A stretch of 64,000 bases of DNA from an uncultured cyanobacterium (GTDB lineage Bacteria > Cyanobacteriota > Cyanobacteriia > Cyanobacteriales > CAWUOF01), in assembly GCA_963744145.1 (NCBI GenBank), contig CAVUSO010000001.1, positions 2,432,001 through 2,496,000 of the forward strand, in the 5' to 3' direction. The first letter of the stretch is position 1. Every line of letters begins with the position of its first letter. The position numbers were made by a program, and so were the translations under genes. This document shows positions 6,477-31,992 of the stretch, in pieces. A model generated the notes under the pieces. It saw nothing but the letters and a program-made list of their open reading frames with translations, had not been told where the DNA came from and ran no database searches.

Positions 6477-6587
6477 ATGCCTCCGGCACGCTACGCGAAC
6501 GCCCCTACGCTTAACTGAACTGTATTGGGTTCTAACCAATAACTGATCTGCCGAAATGCTGATGCCTACGGCACGCTACGCGATCGC
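6477..6587. repeat. Two small dispersed repeat (SDR5-like) elements ATGCCT.CGGCACGCTACGCGA
   Basis: Copies at 6477-6502 (interrupting a REP arm) and 6561-6587 (ending in GCGATCGC). Confidence 0.7.
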
Positions 6588-8222: not shown

Positions 8223-9097
8223 TAGCTTTCCCTCCTTTGTAGAACCCCTGTCATCTGAAATTTATGGATTGATGAATCTGTAAAAATTTCTTCCAAAACT
8301 TGAAAAGCTCCTTCTTTGGAAAGATTAAAATATTTTTGAGCTTCAGCGTTAATAGAATCAGTCTCTATTTGACAATCAAAGCCTTGAAACTGTTGTTCAT
8401 GTAGTTTACCTTGAAATAGTTCATAAACTTTATCGGTTAACTTGGCGACTTCATCCCGCCGATGAGAAATCCATAAAATCCCTGCTTGATTACAATTAGC
8501 AAGTCGTTGAATTTCGGACAATACAATTTGTTTACCTTCTTTGTCTAATCCTTCTGTTGCTTCATCTGCAATTAGCAACTGTGGTTTCTTAGCCAAAGCT
8601 AAAAATGCCATCAGTCTGATCCTTTGTCCTTTTGACAGCTTGCTAACATCAGATTCATAAAAACTAGGAATTTGTAGTCTTTGCTCAATTTCAATGTAAG
8701 CTAATCCTTTTAGCTCCTTTTGTTGCTGACATAGAGATTTAAAAATTTGCACAAGCTCTTTAACTAAAATTCCTGTTGGTAAGCCTAACTCTCCAGGGTA
8801 ATAAGAAGGATCACCTATGTAGCCTAGCTGGGGGTAATTATTGCCCCATAAAACTTTCTTTCCAAATAAATTGACAGTGCCGTTGTTAGGAAAGCATAAT
8901 CCTAGCAATAGTTTAATAATTGTAGATTTGCCGCAGCCATTTTCCCCAATCAGACCAATATTCTTACCCGGAAACAAACTTAATGAAATATTATCCAAAA
9001 GCTTATTCTGGCTTTTGGCATAGCTAAATGTAACATCTTTTAACTCAAATAATGGTTGTTGGCTTAGATGTGAGCCAGTTAAAGAACTTGGTTGCAT
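8222..9097 (-). CDS. ABC transporter ATP-binding protein (start uncertain; alternatives at 9166 and 9220)
   Basis: Walker A GENGCGKST, signature LSKGQ, Walker B LLIADEAT, H-loop ISH. Confidence 0.9.
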   Translation of the reverse strand: MQPSSLTGSHLSQQPLFELKDVTFSYAKSQNKLLDNISLSLFPGKNIGLIGENGCGKSTIIKLLLGLCFPNNGTVNLFGKKVLWGNNYPQLGYIGDPSYYPGELGLPTGILVKELVQIFKSLCQQQKELKGLAYIEIEQRLQIPSFYESDVSKLSKGQRIRLMAFLALAKKPQLLIADEATEGLDKEGKQIVLSEIQRLANCNQAGILWISHRRDEVAKLTDKVYELFQGKLHEQQFQGFDCQIETDSINAEAQKYFNLSKEGAFQVLEEIFTDSSIHKFQMTGVLQRRES

Positions 9098-25545: not shown

Positions 25546-25787
25546 AATATGGATATTCCCATGAATGAGGATAATTGATCAATTCTGCCATAATGATCGA
25601 GAATTAATTAGCCGTTAACATTTAACCAATTTTTTGGCTACTTGTGTCAACCTGGTCAGAGATTGGCTATTAATGATCAGGTCTAACGTCCCAATATGAT
25701 TCAAATCATAATTTAAACTAATATCTAGACCAAAGGGAAGGTTTTTCCCTCAATGAGAGTAATTAGTTGGGAGCGATCGGGTATATT

Positions 25788-25905
25788 GACCTCTCCCCCA
25801 GCCCCTCTCCTAAAAGGAAAGGGGAGCAAGAATGATCTTTCTCCCCCTTCCCCCCTAGGAAAGGGGGTTAGGGGGTTAGGTGTGACCGTGAGCGTAGTCG
25901 AACGG
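25788..25905. repeat. Cyanobacterial CCCC/GGGG palindromic repeat; related copies at ~38272-38313, ~55091-55108 and ~57975-58016
   Basis: GACCTCTCCCCCAGCCCCTCTCC...GGGGAG...GGGGGTTAGGGGGTTAGG. Confidence 0.75.
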
Positions 25906-26153
25906 TTTTTCCGTTGATGATGGGATGATCCCAATTTCCGCTCATTAGCATTACAGATAACTTATATAGACTATCTGTAGTCATAATTATCAGAATTGGT
26001 ATTAAACTAGATTTTTACCTTTCTTGTCGCAGACTCCAGTGATCAGAAAATTAATTATTTTTTAAGTTTTCGCCTATAATAAACATAACTTAGTCATATA
26101 ATATTGTTAAACGACTAATTTTTAACAGATAAAAGTGGATAATTTTACTAAAA

Positions 26154-27572
26154 ATGATAGACATTGACTGGGGTTCAATACTTGATTCAATTCCACCAAA
26201 TTCTGAAGAAGCAATAGTTTCAGAAAAATTTGTCAGACCTCTGATAGAATCACTTGGATTTAGTAGTGAAGAATGGCGGCCCCAATTTCAAACAGATGCT
26301 GGTCCTGTAGATTTTGCTGCCCGCAAAAACGATGGTGATAATTATTTTTTAAACTCTAAGGAAAACCCTGATTTATTGATCGAAGTAAAGGGGCAAGCTA
26401 GGACAAATAAAACTGGGATAATTTCTAAGATTAATCTGGCTGAAAATACTCCACAATATAAAGAGGCAAAAGATCAAATTAAAAGATATTTGCTTGCACC
26501 TAAATGTAAAAAAGCTCAATGGGGGATTATAACTAATTCAATTCATATCCAACTGTTTCGACGACATGGTAATGTGGTTATTCCTGCCACCCCTAGTGAA
26601 TTAATTAAAAAAGATAATATAATTCAAATTATTACTAAAATAAAAAACCTTATTGATCATCCTCCTCAAGCTTTAACAATTTGTTTATATAATGATAAAG
26701 GAGGAGTAGGAAAAACCACTACAACCATAAATCTTGCATCAATATTACGAACATTTAAAAAAAATGTCCTAGTAGTTGATTTTGATGGACAGCAAAGAGA
26801 TTTAACTGATTCCCTTGATTTAAAAGAGTCTGCTGTAACCCTTTCTGAGTGTTTAATTAATGAAAAAATAGATACTCATAAAGCAATTCAACCATTTATT
26901 TGGAAGGATAAAAAAGGACGGAAGTTTAAAATTTTTGATGTGATCCCATCTGATCGTGATCTAGTAAACTTTACAGACCAAAATAAACTAGCTCAAGTAG
27001 AAGAACAATCCGCAAGATTAAAAAACTTACTGAAAACCTTTCTTAATGAATACGACTATATCTTGATCGATAGTCCACCGGGATGGACTTTTTTTAGTCA
27101 AAGCTGTGTATTTGCGGCTGATGTAGTCCTAATACCGACAAAACATGATAATTTCAGCTCTCTCAAAAATGCAGCTAAAGTGATTAAAGAACTTATACCT
27201 GAAGTCCAAAAAGAAAGACTTAAAATATATGGTGAACCTTTACCAGTACCTTTACCAATCTTTTTTAATGAACATGATGTCAGTTCTGCTTCAATTGCAA
27301 GAACACATCATGAAATTAAACAATTAATTACAATTAAAGAAGAGAAAGGAAAAAAAGGAGAGAAAATAGAAAAACTTATTGATGATCCAGATTTACGTCC
27401 TTACTACTACCCAAAAGATAAAAACGGAGATTATGATAGATATATATTCTCTATTCCTGCATATAAAGTAGTAGCGAGTTCTGCATTTATTAGATCACCT
27501 GCGGTTCTAATAAATCAAAATGCTCGTAAATGTTATGAAGAATTAGCTAAGGAGTATTTTTTATATGAGTAA
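26154..27572 (+). CDS. HsdR-N-like PD-(D/E)XK nuclease fused to a ParA/Soj ATPase
   Basis: N-terminal PVDF...LIEVKG...QIKRY...WGIITN; C-terminal KGGVGKTT, VVDFDGQ, YILIDSPP. Confidence 0.88.
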   Translation: MIDIDWGSILDSIPPNSEEAIVSEKFVRPLIESLGFSSEEWRPQFQTDAGPVDFAARKNDGDNYFLNSKENPDLLIEVKGQARTNKTGIISKINLAENTPQYKEAKDQIKRYLLAPKCKKAQWGIITNSIHIQLFRRHGNVVIPATPSELIKKDNIIQIITKIKNLIDHPPQALTICLYNDKGGVGKTTTTINLASILRTFKKNVLVVDFDGQQRDLTDSLDLKESAVTLSECLINEKIDTHKAIQPFIWKDKKGRKFKIFDVIPSDRDLVNFTDQNKLAQVEEQSARLKNLLKTFLNEYDYILIDSPPGWTFFSQSCVFAADVVLIPTKHDNFSSLKNAAKVIKELIPEVQKERLKIYGEPLPVPLPIFFNEHDVSSASIARTHHEIKQLITIKEEKGKKGEKIEKLIDDPDLRPYYYPKDKNGDYDRYIFSIPAYKVVASSAFIRSPAVLINQNARKCYEELAKEYFLYE

Positions 27573-28395
27573 ATTTGATAATATCGGTCAATTAATGTAT
27601 TTGCAACTGGAAAAGATTGATCCTGGAATTGAGCCTAAATCTCATGGTGAAGTTAGAATTACTGAATCTGAATTCATCTTGGAAGCAGCGATCGAATCTG
27701 TCAAGCAAGCTGAAGGTCATAACTGGATTCCTCTGATCGTTCAACAAATTGAAAATAGGTATCAACTTGTCTGCAATCAGTTTGTCTATACTGTAATGCT
27801 GAGAGCCAACTTTGAGAGAGCTTGGTGTATTGTAATCGACCCAGATCAGAAAAATATTGAACAAGCTAAAATTCTCTCAAAAGAAACCGTTCCCAAGGTA
27901 AATCTTTGTACTGCATCTAAAAAAACTATTGAATTAGGTCTAAAGTTTTTACGTGATGAACCTGCAAGTCCATTAAAAGATCTAAAAGATATTGATGTGA
28001 TTAAGATAGCTAATAGTATGATGCAGGCAAATCGAAAAACTTGGGAAAATTTTACTCCGATTATTGCGTTGAAATGTGGAATTGCTAAAGGTAAAAAGTT
28101 AGATGCTTTAGCTAAAGTATTCTATATTGATCCACCGGAAAAAATCATTATCCCACCAGCTCCATTGGTTTTAAGTATTAAAAAAGCTTCTTATGATGAA
28201 GTGGTGGAAAGGATTAGTTATTTATCAACTTATAAAATTGGTGGTTTTGATCAAGTTGATGTTGAAAAAGTATCTGAGGCAATATTCACAGCTACTAAGA
28301 GTAAGTGGAAATCGTTAAACCCGATCGCCAAGCTTGATTGTGGGATTGAAACTGCTGCACAAATAAAAATCCTCAAGAGCGTCTTTACACTTTGA
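27565..28395 (+). CDS. ParB/Srx-like N-terminal domain plus two ComEA-like HhH repeats
   Basis: NWIPLIVQQIENRYQLV (ParB-N-like); repeats KVNLCTAS...W....PI..LKCGI...VFYI and VLSIKKAS...W....PI..LDCGI...VFTL; 8-bp overlap with the upstream gene. Confidence 0.65.
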   Translation: MSKFDNIGQLMYLQLEKIDPGIEPKSHGEVRITESEFILEAAIESVKQAEGHNWIPLIVQQIENRYQLVCNQFVYTVMLRANFERAWCIVIDPDQKNIEQAKILSKETVPKVNLCTASKKTIELGLKFLRDEPASPLKDLKDIDVIKIANSMMQANRKTWENFTPIIALKCGIAKGKKLDALAKVFYIDPPEKIIIPPAPLVLSIKKASYDEVVERISYLSTYKIGGFDQVDVEKVSEAIFTATKSKWKSLNPIAKLDCGIETAAQIKILKSVFTL

Positions 28396-28467
28396 TGGCG
28401 ATCGCTAGCGTGATTTTAGCGATCAAATTGCGATCGCCCCAAAATTACTGATTTTAGACCAGATGAA

Positions 28468-29412
28468 CTAACTATTCAAAAACTGATTAGGATCAATTCC
28501 TGATTCATGCAATCGTTGGAGCAACTCGGCTAACTTTGATTCGGCTTGTTCAGCCCTCAGACGTTCTTGTTCGGCCCGTTGTTGTTCTCGTTCAGCCCGA
28601 AGTTGTTCTTGTTGGGCTCTCAGACGTTCTTGTTGGACAAGCTGACGTTCTTGTTCAGTTTCCGTCAGAATCCAATTACCATTTTCATCATACCAGCGTA
28701 GCCATAATCGCTCTAACCCCTGATATTCTCCTTGCCATCGACCTAATCCTAACCCTAATTCCTCAATCCATCCACCCTGGGCTTCTAGCTCCCATTCCTG
28801 ATAATGTCCCCCGATTAATCGAAATGCTCTCAGTTCATTGGTATAACGGTTGAATGCAAAATAGTAAGGAATGCGTAAGATTTGCTCATACACTTCCCAC
28901 TTCCTCGGTGGTTTCTGTTTTCTGTCTATGTTCAAGCCATTCCCTGCTCCCAATTCATCTTTTCGAGACAATTGCTCTAAATTACCCTCACCTAAATCTT
29001 CCTGTTCTGTTCCTGGTGAGAGTAATTCTACCACTACTAAGGGATTGACCCCTTCTTGCCACACTACATAAGAAAGACGCAAATCAACTTCATCATAAAA
29101 GCGCGATACACCCACTACTCCAAACCAATCGGGTCGTTTGTACCAGAGGGGATGACGCACATCATAGTAAAGATTCATATCGCTGGCACTAAATACTTGG
29201 GAACTGGGGTATTTAGTCGGGCGAAAAGTCTGACTTAAAAATTGAGGTTGCCAATCATGAAATTCATCGGGCAAACCAGGTTCCTCCGGGTTTTCACTAG
29301 GTAGATCATACATGGTGGGGAGCGTTTCTCGCGGGGGAGCCGGAGGATCTTGTTGGGGAACTGGATAGGGAAAGGGAAACATGAGTTCAGAGATGGCTGA
29401 TGTCATAGTCAT
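28468..29412 (-). CDS. Uma2 (DUF820) family PD-(D/E)XK protein with coiled-coil tail
   Basis: LPTMYDLPSE.PEEPGLPDEFH, RPDWF, VVELLSP, QERLRAE repeats. Confidence 0.9.
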   Translation of the reverse strand: MTMTSAISELMFPFPYPVPQQDPPAPPRETLPTMYDLPSENPEEPGLPDEFHDWQPQFLSQTFRPTKYPSSQVFSASDMNLYYDVRHPLWYKRPDWFGVVGVSRFYDEVDLRLSYVVWQEGVNPLVVVELLSPGTEQEDLGEGNLEQLSRKDELGAGNGLNIDRKQKPPRKWEVYEQILRIPYYFAFNRYTNELRAFRLIGGHYQEWELEAQGGWIEELGLGLGRWQGEYQGLERLWLRWYDENGNWILTETEQERQLVQQERLRAQQEQLRAEREQQRAEQERLRAEQAESKLAELLQRLHESGIDPNQFLNS

Positions 29413-29995
29413 TATAACTTGAAAATTCTCAGCGAGCAGTTAGCATAGACTATTTGACCTATGAGTTATAAAAAAGAAGTTTTAACAATTTGCTTTTTCT
29501 CCGACTTTTCTTCGATTTTCTCAAGTTGAGAACGGGAGTTCAAAAATTCTTCAAATAACTCAAAAAATGATGGATGTTATGATTTAGCGAATATATTTGA
29601 TGATTGGAGAAAAAAGGAAAAATATCTTAGAGACGAAACTTACAGGTTATTTAGAGAAAAAGGAAGGGTCGAATTTCTCTTTATAGTGCGATCGCATCAA
29701 TTAAGTTAATGTGCGATCGTGTTCTTACTTAAGCTTCAAACAGATAAAGTATGACCAACACTGTTCATAAATTTAATTACAGAGATCAAATAATGTTGAT
29801 TGCTTGCTTGCTAAAATGGCGCAAATTTGTCAATTGCTCCGAGAAGGGAGAAAAAACTCATTAGAGAAATTGGAAAAATGGAACCGATTGAGCTGGTCTA
29901 AGAGTCTAAAAAGCTGCGGAGATAGAATGGGGCTGACTATTCTAGCTCAAGCTGAAATGGATTCTATAATCATGACCTCTATCAGGTAGAAAAAC

Positions 29996-31358: not shown

Positions 31359-31659
31359 TAGAAATTAAACCATTTGAGGTGGACAAGCAGGCAGTCAAAA
31401 CCCAAAGAAAGCATCTTGATCATACCTTCGACTCTGCCCTTTACAAATGTTCTGATGGAACCTCTCTACGCGAGCGGGAAAACGAGCGAGTAAAGTCAGT
31501 TGTCCAAAGGATCAATCTGACCACCCTATTATAGTCGGCTGGAGATAAACATAAGCCTTTGTGGGTTTAAAAATGCACTGGTTTAACACTGGGATCAATT
31601 GGGATGAGTCCAAAATTAGCATTAGACAAGAAAGCAAAAGTCATGTTGATCAATTTACT

Positions 31660-31745
31660 GGACAGGCAAGATGCCTGTCCCACAACCAAAAAAACTCTTG
31701 TAGGACAGGCATCTTGCCTGTCCTAGTTATTTTTGCAAGAAGTCT
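31660..31745. repeat. REP-like palindrome GGACAGGCAAGATGCCTGTCC; second copy at ~48655-48735
   Basis: Inverted arms GGACAGGCAAGATGCCTGTCC / GGACAGGCATCTTGCCTGTCC. Confidence 0.8.
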
Positions 31746-31992
31746 ATTGTGGGTGAGACAGTCCGCTCTCACTTAGAGGTCCATCAACTGTCTTTTCTGT
31801 CAACTGCATAAATCCTGATATATATATTTGTATATAAGTTCACCGAACTGGAGAACTTATATTTTGAGTAGTATTAACAAACTCCCTAATCATCTTGTTA
31901 AAGTTTGTTTACAGGAAAAATACATCTTGCGAACAACCGATTCGGGAAAAGCAGAGGATTGACCTGACGCGAATTTCTACTTTGGTTAAGTT

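Follow-up and report, generated by a model that had tools for sequence, protein, structure and literature searches.

What could a ParA-type ATPase with a nuclease at its N-terminus do in a cyanobacterium? The question is raised by two overlapping genes in a stretch of 64,000 nucleotides, hereafter the window, from an uncultured member of the Cyanobacteriales (assembly GCA_963744145.1, contig CAVUSO010000001.1, positions 2,432,001 to 2,496,000 of the forward strand). To our knowledge, ParA/MinD ATPases are positioning devices, and we know of none with an active nuclease. The two genes form a unit confined to cyanobacteria, consisting of a ParA-type ATPase with a restriction-type nuclease head (gene 1) and a reduced ParB-like partner (gene 2). 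The pair is dispensable, compositionally deviant and mostly vertically inherited, and it has been lost repeatedly. We favor, at a probability of about 0.4, the interpretation that it is a self-contained, dispensable DNA-conflict module of cyanobacteria with an ATP-gated nuclease, its role being either to protect against incoming DNA or to act as an addiction-type element. An earlier reading of the same DNA (the original prediction) had proposed DNA surveillance and had set partition aside.

The nuclease head of gene 1

The original prediction had assigned the N-terminus of gene 1 to an HsdR-N-type PD-(D/E)XK domain with intact catalytic residues, and our analysis bears this out. Pfam placed HSDR_N_2 at residues 19–137 with a borderline score (E 1.1e-5; 25.9 bits against a cut-off of 25). 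Because this call was weak, residues 1–170 were folded separately with AlphaFold2 (AF2) using 33 homologous segments, and the model, which reached a predicted local distance difference test (pLDDT) score of 95, was aligned to approximately 48,000 representatives of the Protein Data Bank (PDB). The type IIG enzyme BpuSI gave the best match through its cleavage domain (Z 12.8 over 143 aligned residues), followed by the HsdR of Vibrio vulnificus (Z 10.7), DrdV (Z 10.3) and the HsdR of EcoR124I (Z 7.8). Hjc, Vsr, NucS and exonucleases ranked lower, at Z 5–6. Foldseek also returned BpuSI first, with an E of only 1.1e-3.

Five residues, D53, E77, K79, Q108 and Y112, were invariant in all 34 aligned N-domains and correspond to the D / ExK / QxxxY set of nuclease motifs; homologues lacking these residues would have spoken against the assignment, and there were none among the 34. 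PMC2475608 describes QxxxY of HsdR as a RecB-family nuclease motif. The fold and the D, (D/E)xK and QxxxY motifs together place the domain in the PD-(D/E)XK group of HsdR-N/RecB type. Thus, the head is predicted to be an apparently catalytic restriction-type nuclease.

The head is conserved to the same degree as the ATPase to which it is fused (mean identity over 71 pairs, 53.6% vs 54.6%). A search with the head profile gave 142 matches among 1.84 billion representatives, and AAA_31 was present in 30 of the 31 long matches that were scanned. These results indicate that the head subfamily is nearly dedicated to fusion with ParA. Rare relatives carry further domains: P0315 has an added N-terminal HEPN_Swt1 (Swt1-like HEPN) domain, and P0309 and P0281 have an added superfamily 1 helicase that matches MkoA of the Mokosh system (6e-41 to 4e-62).

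The ATPase of gene 1

The ATPase of gene 1 is complete, as had been claimed. AAA_31/ParA covers residues 175–348 (Pfam, E 7e-34), and the residues of Walker A (KGGVGKT, with K182 and K187), Walker A' (D209/D211) and Walker B (D306/P308) were invariant in 33 full-length homologues. The signature lysine of KGGxGK[ST] and the Walker A' and Walker B aspartates assign the domain to the deviant Walker A ATPases. The family profile was closest to Soj of Helicobacter pylori (6iub, 1.6e-26), then to ParA of Myxococcus xanthus (8ray, 3.3e-24), and the P1/P7 ParA chains 3ez2 and 3ez9 matched it at about 1e-9 to 1e-10. Relatives of gene 1 numbered 2925 at E<=1e-3, and the best 120 were all about 420–475 residues long. 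When gene 1 was compared with PADLOC-DB 2.0, the sole match was a weak one to the Walker A region of PDC-M28B (E 9.8e-7, 41 residues). The C-terminal part of the ATPase contains a Lys/Glu-rich insertion (near residues 397–410, positions 27342–27383) whose alignment columns are gapped in at least 97% of 71 homologues, and which is peculiar to the clade of the window's gene 1.

The partner encoded by gene 2

Gene 2 gave no match in Pfam, NCBIfam or PADLOC, and PF02195 (ParB_N) failed to detect it. Its AF2 model (pLDDT 90.8) revealed a ParB/Srx fold at residues 5–110, closest to PadC (Z 11.2), KorB (Z 9.9) and sulfiredoxin (Z 9.5). Foldseek agreed, with M. xanthus ParB at 7.8e-6 and ParB, Noc and PadC at 1e-5 to 1e-4. 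The domain had been described as lacking the arginine box, and this is correct: the position of box II (GERR/GxxRxxA) reads SNHF, with CNQF in the window, and carries an arginine in none of the 30 aligned sequences. In the same alignment, N53, W54, P56, N71 and W87 of the domain were invariant. The N-terminus reads M..FDN.G(K/Q/E)LM, in which the basic residue is not conserved and the window has Q. ParB proteins activate ParA through the N-terminal peptide LG-R/K-GL, as stated in matched text of PMC12704722. Neither this peptide nor a central helix-turn-helix (HTH) domain was found in gene 2, and the region past residue 110 consists of two repeats of helix-hairpin-helix (HhH) type.

The replacement of the HTH by two HhH repeats was part of the original prediction and also appears to stand. 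Repeat 2 (residues 197–276) resembled the ComEA-related 2duy (Z 6.7) and ComEA 8dss (Z 6.3), and repeat 1 (residues 109–192) the HhH regions of GspK/XcpX and Tex (Z 5.6–6.2); these scores are moderate, and for both repeats below the level at which the alignment tool is decisive. Homology between the two repeats is clear (hhalign 99%, E 7e-18), and HHH_3 occurs in 11% of the members of a related Atlas cluster.

Pairing and distribution

A search with gene 2 found 105 relatives at E<=1e-3 with 42–68% identity. All those with an organism name are cyanobacterial, as are the nearest ESM Atlas clusters. When 185,579 species genomes were scanned with a pattern, 224 stretches encoding a relative were obtained, of which the best 80 loci were examined. 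A ParA-type match lay directly upstream of gene 2 in 78 of these 80, the exceptions being L060, which ends with its contig, and L047, which has an internal deletion. The genes are thus strictly paired; a lack of co-conservation would have counted against the original prediction. The gene-1 match in related loci stops within a few bases of the gene-2 start. The nuclease head was present in 75 of the 80 loci; three of the remaining five are cut by a contig end and two belong to a divergent clade. When the flanking open reading frames (ORFs) of the 80 loci were clustered, only genes 1 and 2 were common to them, and the next real cluster comprised 19 loci of a single genus. The pairwise identities of gene 1 and gene 2 were correlated (r = 0.86), which is consistent with co-inheritance of the two genes, although shared ancestry alone also yields a high value.

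The gene-2 profile matched 64 of 401 evenly sampled cyanobacterial genomes in a patchy manner. In genus g3, matches were obtained in 16 of 19 genomes, four of which are weak and fall on other proteins; families f6 and f26 gave 11 of 46 and 1 of 33, respectively. The pair is therefore not core; a single-copy core pair with parS-like sites would have contradicted the original prediction. In-frame stops occurred in four of the gene-2 matches, and L047 and L012 are decayed copies of the pair. A contig labelled as a Rhizobium sp. metagenome-assembled genome (MAG; L063) also carries the pair; its 14 HIP1 sites in 11 kb make a mis-binned cyanobacterial contig the probable explanation.

PF02195 matched 186 of the same 401 genomes. 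The idea that the pair is a general replacement for missing canonical ParABS was rejected, because 55 of the 63 other pair-carrying genomes also have a ParB_N match and thus show no complementarity; at least a dozen of these are weak matches (E 1e-3 to 1e-5) that may correspond to the gene-2 relative. The window's own genome (7.7 Mb, 96.3% complete) gave no PF02195 match.

That genome contains a second, divergent copy of the pair outside the window (G000:C1:6559294-6561399; locus L103 8294-10399, minus strand). It encodes a 448-residue HSDR_N_2+AAA_31 protein and a 241-residue ParB-like partner with a SAP/Rho_N-like tail, is directly followed by a NUDIX gene, and has a PIN/UPF0175 pair approximately 3 kb further on. 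Like the window pair, it matched no system in PADLOC-DB 2.0. The partners on plasmids likewise have Rho_N/SAP tails, with weak ParB_N signals, and the ATPases there keep HSDR_N_2 in two of three cases; the plasmids that bear these distant relatives have ParM or small ParA systems as well.

Presence and absence at fixed sites, and composition

Comparison of related genomes, whose genus names were assigned by similarity to named loci, revealed clean empty sites in two genera and slot sharing in one. In the Microcoleus-like genus g3, the flanks of locus L009 directly abut in genome G235 with 94% identity (empty site L098; G235:C2, near 11500). A direct repeat of approximately 30 bp flanks the 2.4-kb cassette in L009 (~6490–6520 and ~8950–8980) and is present as one copy in G235. 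In G323, this slot is occupied by a type II restriction enzyme (PADLOC REase_II, 4e-39) together with a C5 methyltransferase (8e-104). A ParE toxin (Pfam, 1.3e-18) preceded by a small ORF occupies it in G056, and G313 has 398 bp at this place. The upstream neighbour of the pair in L009 is a type IIG-like methyltransferase/restriction enzyme. In genomes G243 and G217 of the Nostoc-like genus g22, only 224 bp and 241 bp, respectively, separate the flanks of L011.

All cargo variants of the Microcoleus slot share a conserved element of approximately 130 bp that lies 3' of the right-hand direct repeat, and G323 retains part of the gene-1 leader ahead of its methylase gene. By eye, approximately 170 bp 5' of gene 1 and the first codons are mostly near-identical between L009 (6470–6645) and L064 (5940–6110), a Chroococcales MAG, although the tree places their proteins in different clades; the cause could be recombination, transfer or mis-binning.

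The pair also differs in composition from its surroundings. The original prediction had called the module AT-rich, and its GC content is 0.33 vs 0.39 in the window. GC lies below that of the flanks in 65 of 67 loci, and GC at third codon positions is 0.29 vs 0.43 and lower in 56 of 58 loci. HIP1 sites number 0 in the window pair vs 1.25 per kb in the window; over 67 loci, the densities are 0.043 (pair) vs 0.79 per kb (flanks).

Sequences upstream of gene 1

No parS-like site was found in the window, which is also without flanking direct repeats around the pair. Of 33 lineage representatives, 28, among them the window, showed no repeated 9-mer in the region before gene 1. An operator or parS shared across lineages was rejected as well: besides HIP1, only A-rich words were shared, and the best shared words were an 8-mer in at most 8 of 36 lineage clusters and a 10-mer in 4. 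The repeat upstream of the window pair (25735–25925) was discarded as a centromere because it is a hairpin-rich dispersed element with 54 matches in the genome.

In L057, L061, L069 and L077, a C-run followed by a ATAAATAGGGCA-like motif lies approximately 90–130 bp 5' of gene 1. The motif is common to Leptolyngbyales loci of the main clade and of the deeply divergent paralogous clade, and together with the C-run it may be a lineage-specific regulatory site.

Organization of the window locus

The coordinates of both genes and their 8-bp overlap are exactly as originally reported, the ATG of gene 2 lying inside the last codons of gene 1 (Table 1). The placement of the pair between repeats and a Uma2 gene was likewise correct: the dispersed repeat lies upstream, and the downstream neighbour is a Uma2 gene (28418–29567; Pfam, E 6.6e-15). 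This Uma2-like gene has copies of 80–94% identity elsewhere on the chromosome, and its C-terminus is a 21-bp-periodic heptad-coding repeat. An element of approximately 115 bp at 31634–31748 has many copies of 93–99% identity. Replicon genes and a methylase had been reported missing nearby, and in fact none of the 22 ORFs lying from 13.4 to 40.5 kb in the window proved to be a methylase or replication gene or to belong to a PADLOC system. The surroundings comprise Zn/Mn, cobalt and Kdp transport genes, kinases and Uma2, with generic ABC and kinase matches in PADLOC. A search with Rfam gave chance hairpin matches only, and a promoter and terminator scan gave counts not above those of shuffled sequence.

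Table 1. Features of the gene pair in the window (window coordinates) and of the upstream arrays in related loci (locus coordinates).
Feature	Position	Strand	Description and basis
Gene 1	26154..27572	+	472 aa; PD-(D/E)XK nuclease head fused to ParA/Soj-type ATPase; ORF, Pfam HSDR_N_2 and AAA_31
N-terminal restriction-type nuclease domain (gene 1 aa 1-170)	26154..26663	+	AF2, structural matches, conserved motifs
Nuclease motif codons of gene 1	D53 26310-26312; E77 26382-26384; K79 26388-26390; Q108 26475-26477; Y112 26487-26489		
ParA/Soj-type deviant Walker A ATPase domain (gene 1 aa 171-472)	26664..27569	+	AAA_31, profile match, motifs
Walker A KGGVGKT	26697-26717	+	gene 1 aa 182-188
Translational coupling region	27549..27572	+	AAGGAG 10 nt 5' of gene 2 ATG; 8-bp overlap
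Gene 2	27565..28395	+	276 aa; ParB/Srx-fold domain and two HhH repeats; ORF, relatives, AF2
ParB/Srx-fold domain (gene 2 aa 1-110)	27565..27894	+	structural matches, 30-sequence alignment
HhH-type repeat 1 (gene 2 aa 104-192)	27874..28140	+	XcpX/GspK and Tex matches; homology to repeat 2
HhH-type repeat 2, ComEA-like (gene 2 aa 197-276)	28153..28392	+	ComEA matches; homology to repeat 1
21-bp arrays	L011 6239-6466; L015, L020, L021, L026, L028, L036, L042 (Nostoc); L023 6112-6268 (Pantanalinema)		

Comparison with known systems

In abstracts and matched passages of the literature, we found no published description of a nuclease-ParA fusion or of its gene 2 partner. The corresponding parts of the ParB-CTPase survey (PMC12704722), the paper on McdAB evolution (PMC7182216), the Menshen analysis (PMC12065111) and a 2026 anti-plasmid preprint contain no such system. 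The ParB-CTPase survey states, in the matched text, that it relied on PF02195 with gathering cut-offs; since PF02195 does not match gene 2, surveys of this kind would miss it. The claim that no characterised system has this architecture thus agrees with these passages and with the lack of a PADLOC system match.

The pair resembles the type Ib system ParA(Soj)-ParB(Spo0J)-parS in being a two-gene operon that begins with a deviant Walker A ATPase closest to Soj/ParA, and its gene 2 shares the ParB/Srx fold, PadC and KorB being the two closest. Unlike in type Ib ParABS, the ATPase bears a restriction-type nuclease head of 170 residues, no parS is present in the window, and the pair is non-core and co-occurs with canonical ParB. 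Gene 2 also departs from canonical ParB in lacking the arginine box, the HTH and the LG-R/K-GL peptide and in ending in HhH repeats. The type Ia plasmid ATPases, such as P1 ParA and F SopA, possess an N-terminal DNA-binding extension with a winged HTH. Gene 1 is similar to them in that it precedes its partner and adds a sizeable N-terminal domain to ParA; however, its extension is a PD-(D/E)XK domain with invariant catalytic residues instead of a winged HTH, and its setting is mostly chromosomal.

The head has the fold and the D...ExK...QxxxY set of Type I HsdR and Type IIG/IIL enzymes (EcoR124I, BpuSI, DrdV), and as in HsdR, BpuSI and DrdV it is N-terminal to an NTP-using or DNA-tracking module. 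In contrast to these enzymes, it is joined to a ParA dimeriser and not to a superfamily 2 translocase or a methyltransferase/target recognition domain, and no methylase or specificity subunit is near the window pair.

Two groups of defence systems follow a similar logic. In Menshen (NsnABC), according to matched passages of PMC12065111, an ATPase and a nuclease effector are combined with a DNA-binding sensor of ParB-like type, and PMC10586767 describes the SMC-derived Wadjet and Lamassu as chromosome-maintenance machinery re-used against foreign DNA. The pair shares with Menshen the combination of a ParB-like, putative DNA-binding protein, an ATPase and a nuclease, and its use against foreign DNA would share with Wadjet and Lamassu the turning of maintenance machinery to that end. 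Nevertheless, the pair has no sequence relationship to any of the three, and the PADLOC models of these systems do not match it. Its ATPase is of the ParA class and not ABC/SMC, its ParB-fold domain is not DUF262, and its ATPase and nuclease form one polypeptide.

Possible functions of the pair

We favor a DNA-conflict module on the basis of the conservation of the catalytic residues, the slot shared with restriction-modification and toxin-antitoxin cargo, the deviant composition and the rare fusions. The head being the cleavage module of ATP-dependent or methyltransferase-fused restriction enzymes also counts for it, as does the patchy, dispensable and sometimes broken pair with its clean insertions and deletions at fixed sites. 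Furthermore, a recognisable sequence-reading domain is missing from both proteins and a parS-like site from the window. Plasmids with distant relatives carry other partition genes, and the pair is no substitute for ParB; we count all of this in the same direction.

In such a module, gene 1 would bind ATP, form a Soj-like sandwich dimer and sit on DNA without sequence preference. Dimerization or clustering may then juxtapose two restriction-type heads, which would make cutting ATP-gated. Gene 2 would bind DNA non-specifically through its HhH repeats, and its ParB/Srx domain without a CTP box may control the ATPase cycle and, through it, the dwell time of the nuclease on a given DNA. A more specific proposal, which we regard as doubtful, makes the pair the first immune or DNA-surveillance system derived from ParA/ParB machinery. 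A nucleoid-riding ParA dimer would be the ATP-gated nuclease, a non-specific and CTP-independent ParB-fold partner would set its dwell time, and DNA not properly serviced by the partner, such as an incoming plasmid or phage, would be cut. If true, this would parallel the re-use of SMC complexes in Wadjet.

Vertical, syntenic inheritance is unusual for defence genes, and the following observations weigh against a conflict module. The gene-1 tree (71 rows, FastTree, no bootstraps) mostly follows taxonomy: it requires 19 changes of order label, where at least 13 are needed and shuffled labels give 36 on average. The 13 rows of Nostoc and the 15 of Microcoleus each form a single clade, and their loci keep gene order within the genus; a few placements in the tree are discordant. 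A scan of up to four ORFs per side in 19 diverse loci (144 ORFs) revealed mostly housekeeping neighbours, for example YceG, Tmk, HolB, PyrD, SecA, PrmA, Alr, RtcA, ArgF and Ffh. Families of defence or mobile type were near the pair in 7 of the 19 loci and absent from 12. The window pair itself is surrounded by transporters and kinases. Distant relatives (29–44% identity) occur on only 3–4 of 72,556 plasmids, and of 52 pattern matches in viral contigs, 0 were confirmed as relatives. The putative HEPN and helicase fusions are metagenomic singletons, and PADLOC 2.0 has no model for either protein. Neither protein has a recognisable means of discriminating self from non-self, and the pair appears to come with no methylase or other self-marker: no methyltransferase or specificity module was found among the 22 ORFs of the window between 13.4 and 40.5 kb, and none was co-conserved in the 80 loci.

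A further point of this kind is a tandem array of 21-bp units located 117–611 bp upstream of gene 1 in eight Nostoc loci and in Pantanalinema (4–11 units). The units are of related sequence between the two orders and occur in those loci only upstream of gene 1. In two Nostoc genomes of approximately 8 Mb, 10 of 10 and 8 of 9 genome-wide unit matches fell inside the array, which itself lies within the Nostoc presence/absence indel. The array looks like a candidate iteron centromere or operator. A heptad-repeat gene was considered and rejected for these arrays: in Nostoc, a minus-strand frame is open in L011, L036, L026 and L028 and not in L020, L042 and L021, and the L023 array of Pantanalinema has stops in all three minus-strand frames. 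Because of these broken frames, the arrays are probably non-coding iterons.

These arrays bring in partition-like positioning of chromosome copies or other DNA cargo in polyploid cyanobacteria, in which gene 1 would form ATP-dependent nucleoid gradients and gene 2 would act as a stimulating adaptor. The nuclease-fold head would then bind DNA or an operator, as the N-terminal HTH of type Ia ParA does, or process DNA during segregation. We consider this explanation, the main rival to a conflict module, rather unlikely, although the architecture, the vertical tree and the Nostoc array lead to it: the genes form a translationally coupled parA-parB-like operon, the ATPase is closest to chromosomal Soj/ParA, the ParB/Srx fold of gene 2 is closest to KorB and to PadC, which recruits ParA, the phylogeny is largely vertical with genus-level synteny and housekeeping neighbours, and the array of the Nostoc subclade and Pantanalinema is genome-unique in the two Nostoc genomes checked and, in Nostoc, lies within the indel. 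The window's genome is also without any PF02195 ParB, and polyploid archaea use the comparable system HpaAB, as PMC13722703 reports. However, a mere binding domain would not need invariant catalytic residues, and gene 2 has no hallmark of ParB besides the fold (arginine box, HTH and LG-R/K-GL peptide are all missing). An upstream repeated motif is lacking in the 28 of 33 lineage representatives, the window among them; the pair, in only 64 of 401 genomes, is cleanly lost within genera and co-occurs with canonical ParB; and the plasmids with relatives have other partition genes too. Thus, where the original prediction read surveillance and not partition, the first part gains from the slot shared with restriction-modification and ParE, the AT-rich and HIP1-poor composition and the HEPN- and Mokosh-type fusions, while its exclusion of partition is not established in view of the vertical tree, the housekeeping neighbours and the Nostoc 21-bp array.

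An accessory factor of DNA repair, recombination or turnover is, in our judgment, decidedly improbable. A nucleoid-scanning ATPase would in that case deliver a structure-specific nuclease to ends, branches or damage, with gene 2 as a DNA-bound cofactor, for example in trimming or degrading surplus or damaged chromosome copies. The PD-(D/E)XK/RecB-type motifs are common to repair nucleases and resolvases, and Hjc, Vsr, NucS and exonucleases do appear among the structural matches, but the best of these are restriction heads and not repair enzymes. HhH modules are typical of repair proteins, inheritance is vertical in a chromosomal setting, and the paralogous pair of the same genome is followed by a NUDIX gene; against this, no repair gene was linked to the pair across the 80 loci, and patchy loss, deviant composition and a slot shared with restriction-modification and toxin-antitoxin genes are not expected of repair genes. 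A DNA-conflict module remains the interpretation that we prefer.

Significance

This study also bears on the wider use of the ParB fold and of ParA-type ATPases. Under either reading, gene 2 would indicate that the ParB fold remains functional in the absence of CTP motifs, and Pfam-based surveys of ParB do not detect this gene. If the pair proves to be partition-like, it would provide the first handle on the organization of chromosome copies in polyploid cyanobacteria that lack canonical ParB, including the organism of the window. If, on the other hand, the head cuts under the control of ATP and the partner, the pair would represent a new coupling of a Brownian-ratchet ATPase to DNA destruction. 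Plasmids and cyanophages could then meet a new barrier in cyanobacteria, with consequences for the genetic tractability of filamentous forms.

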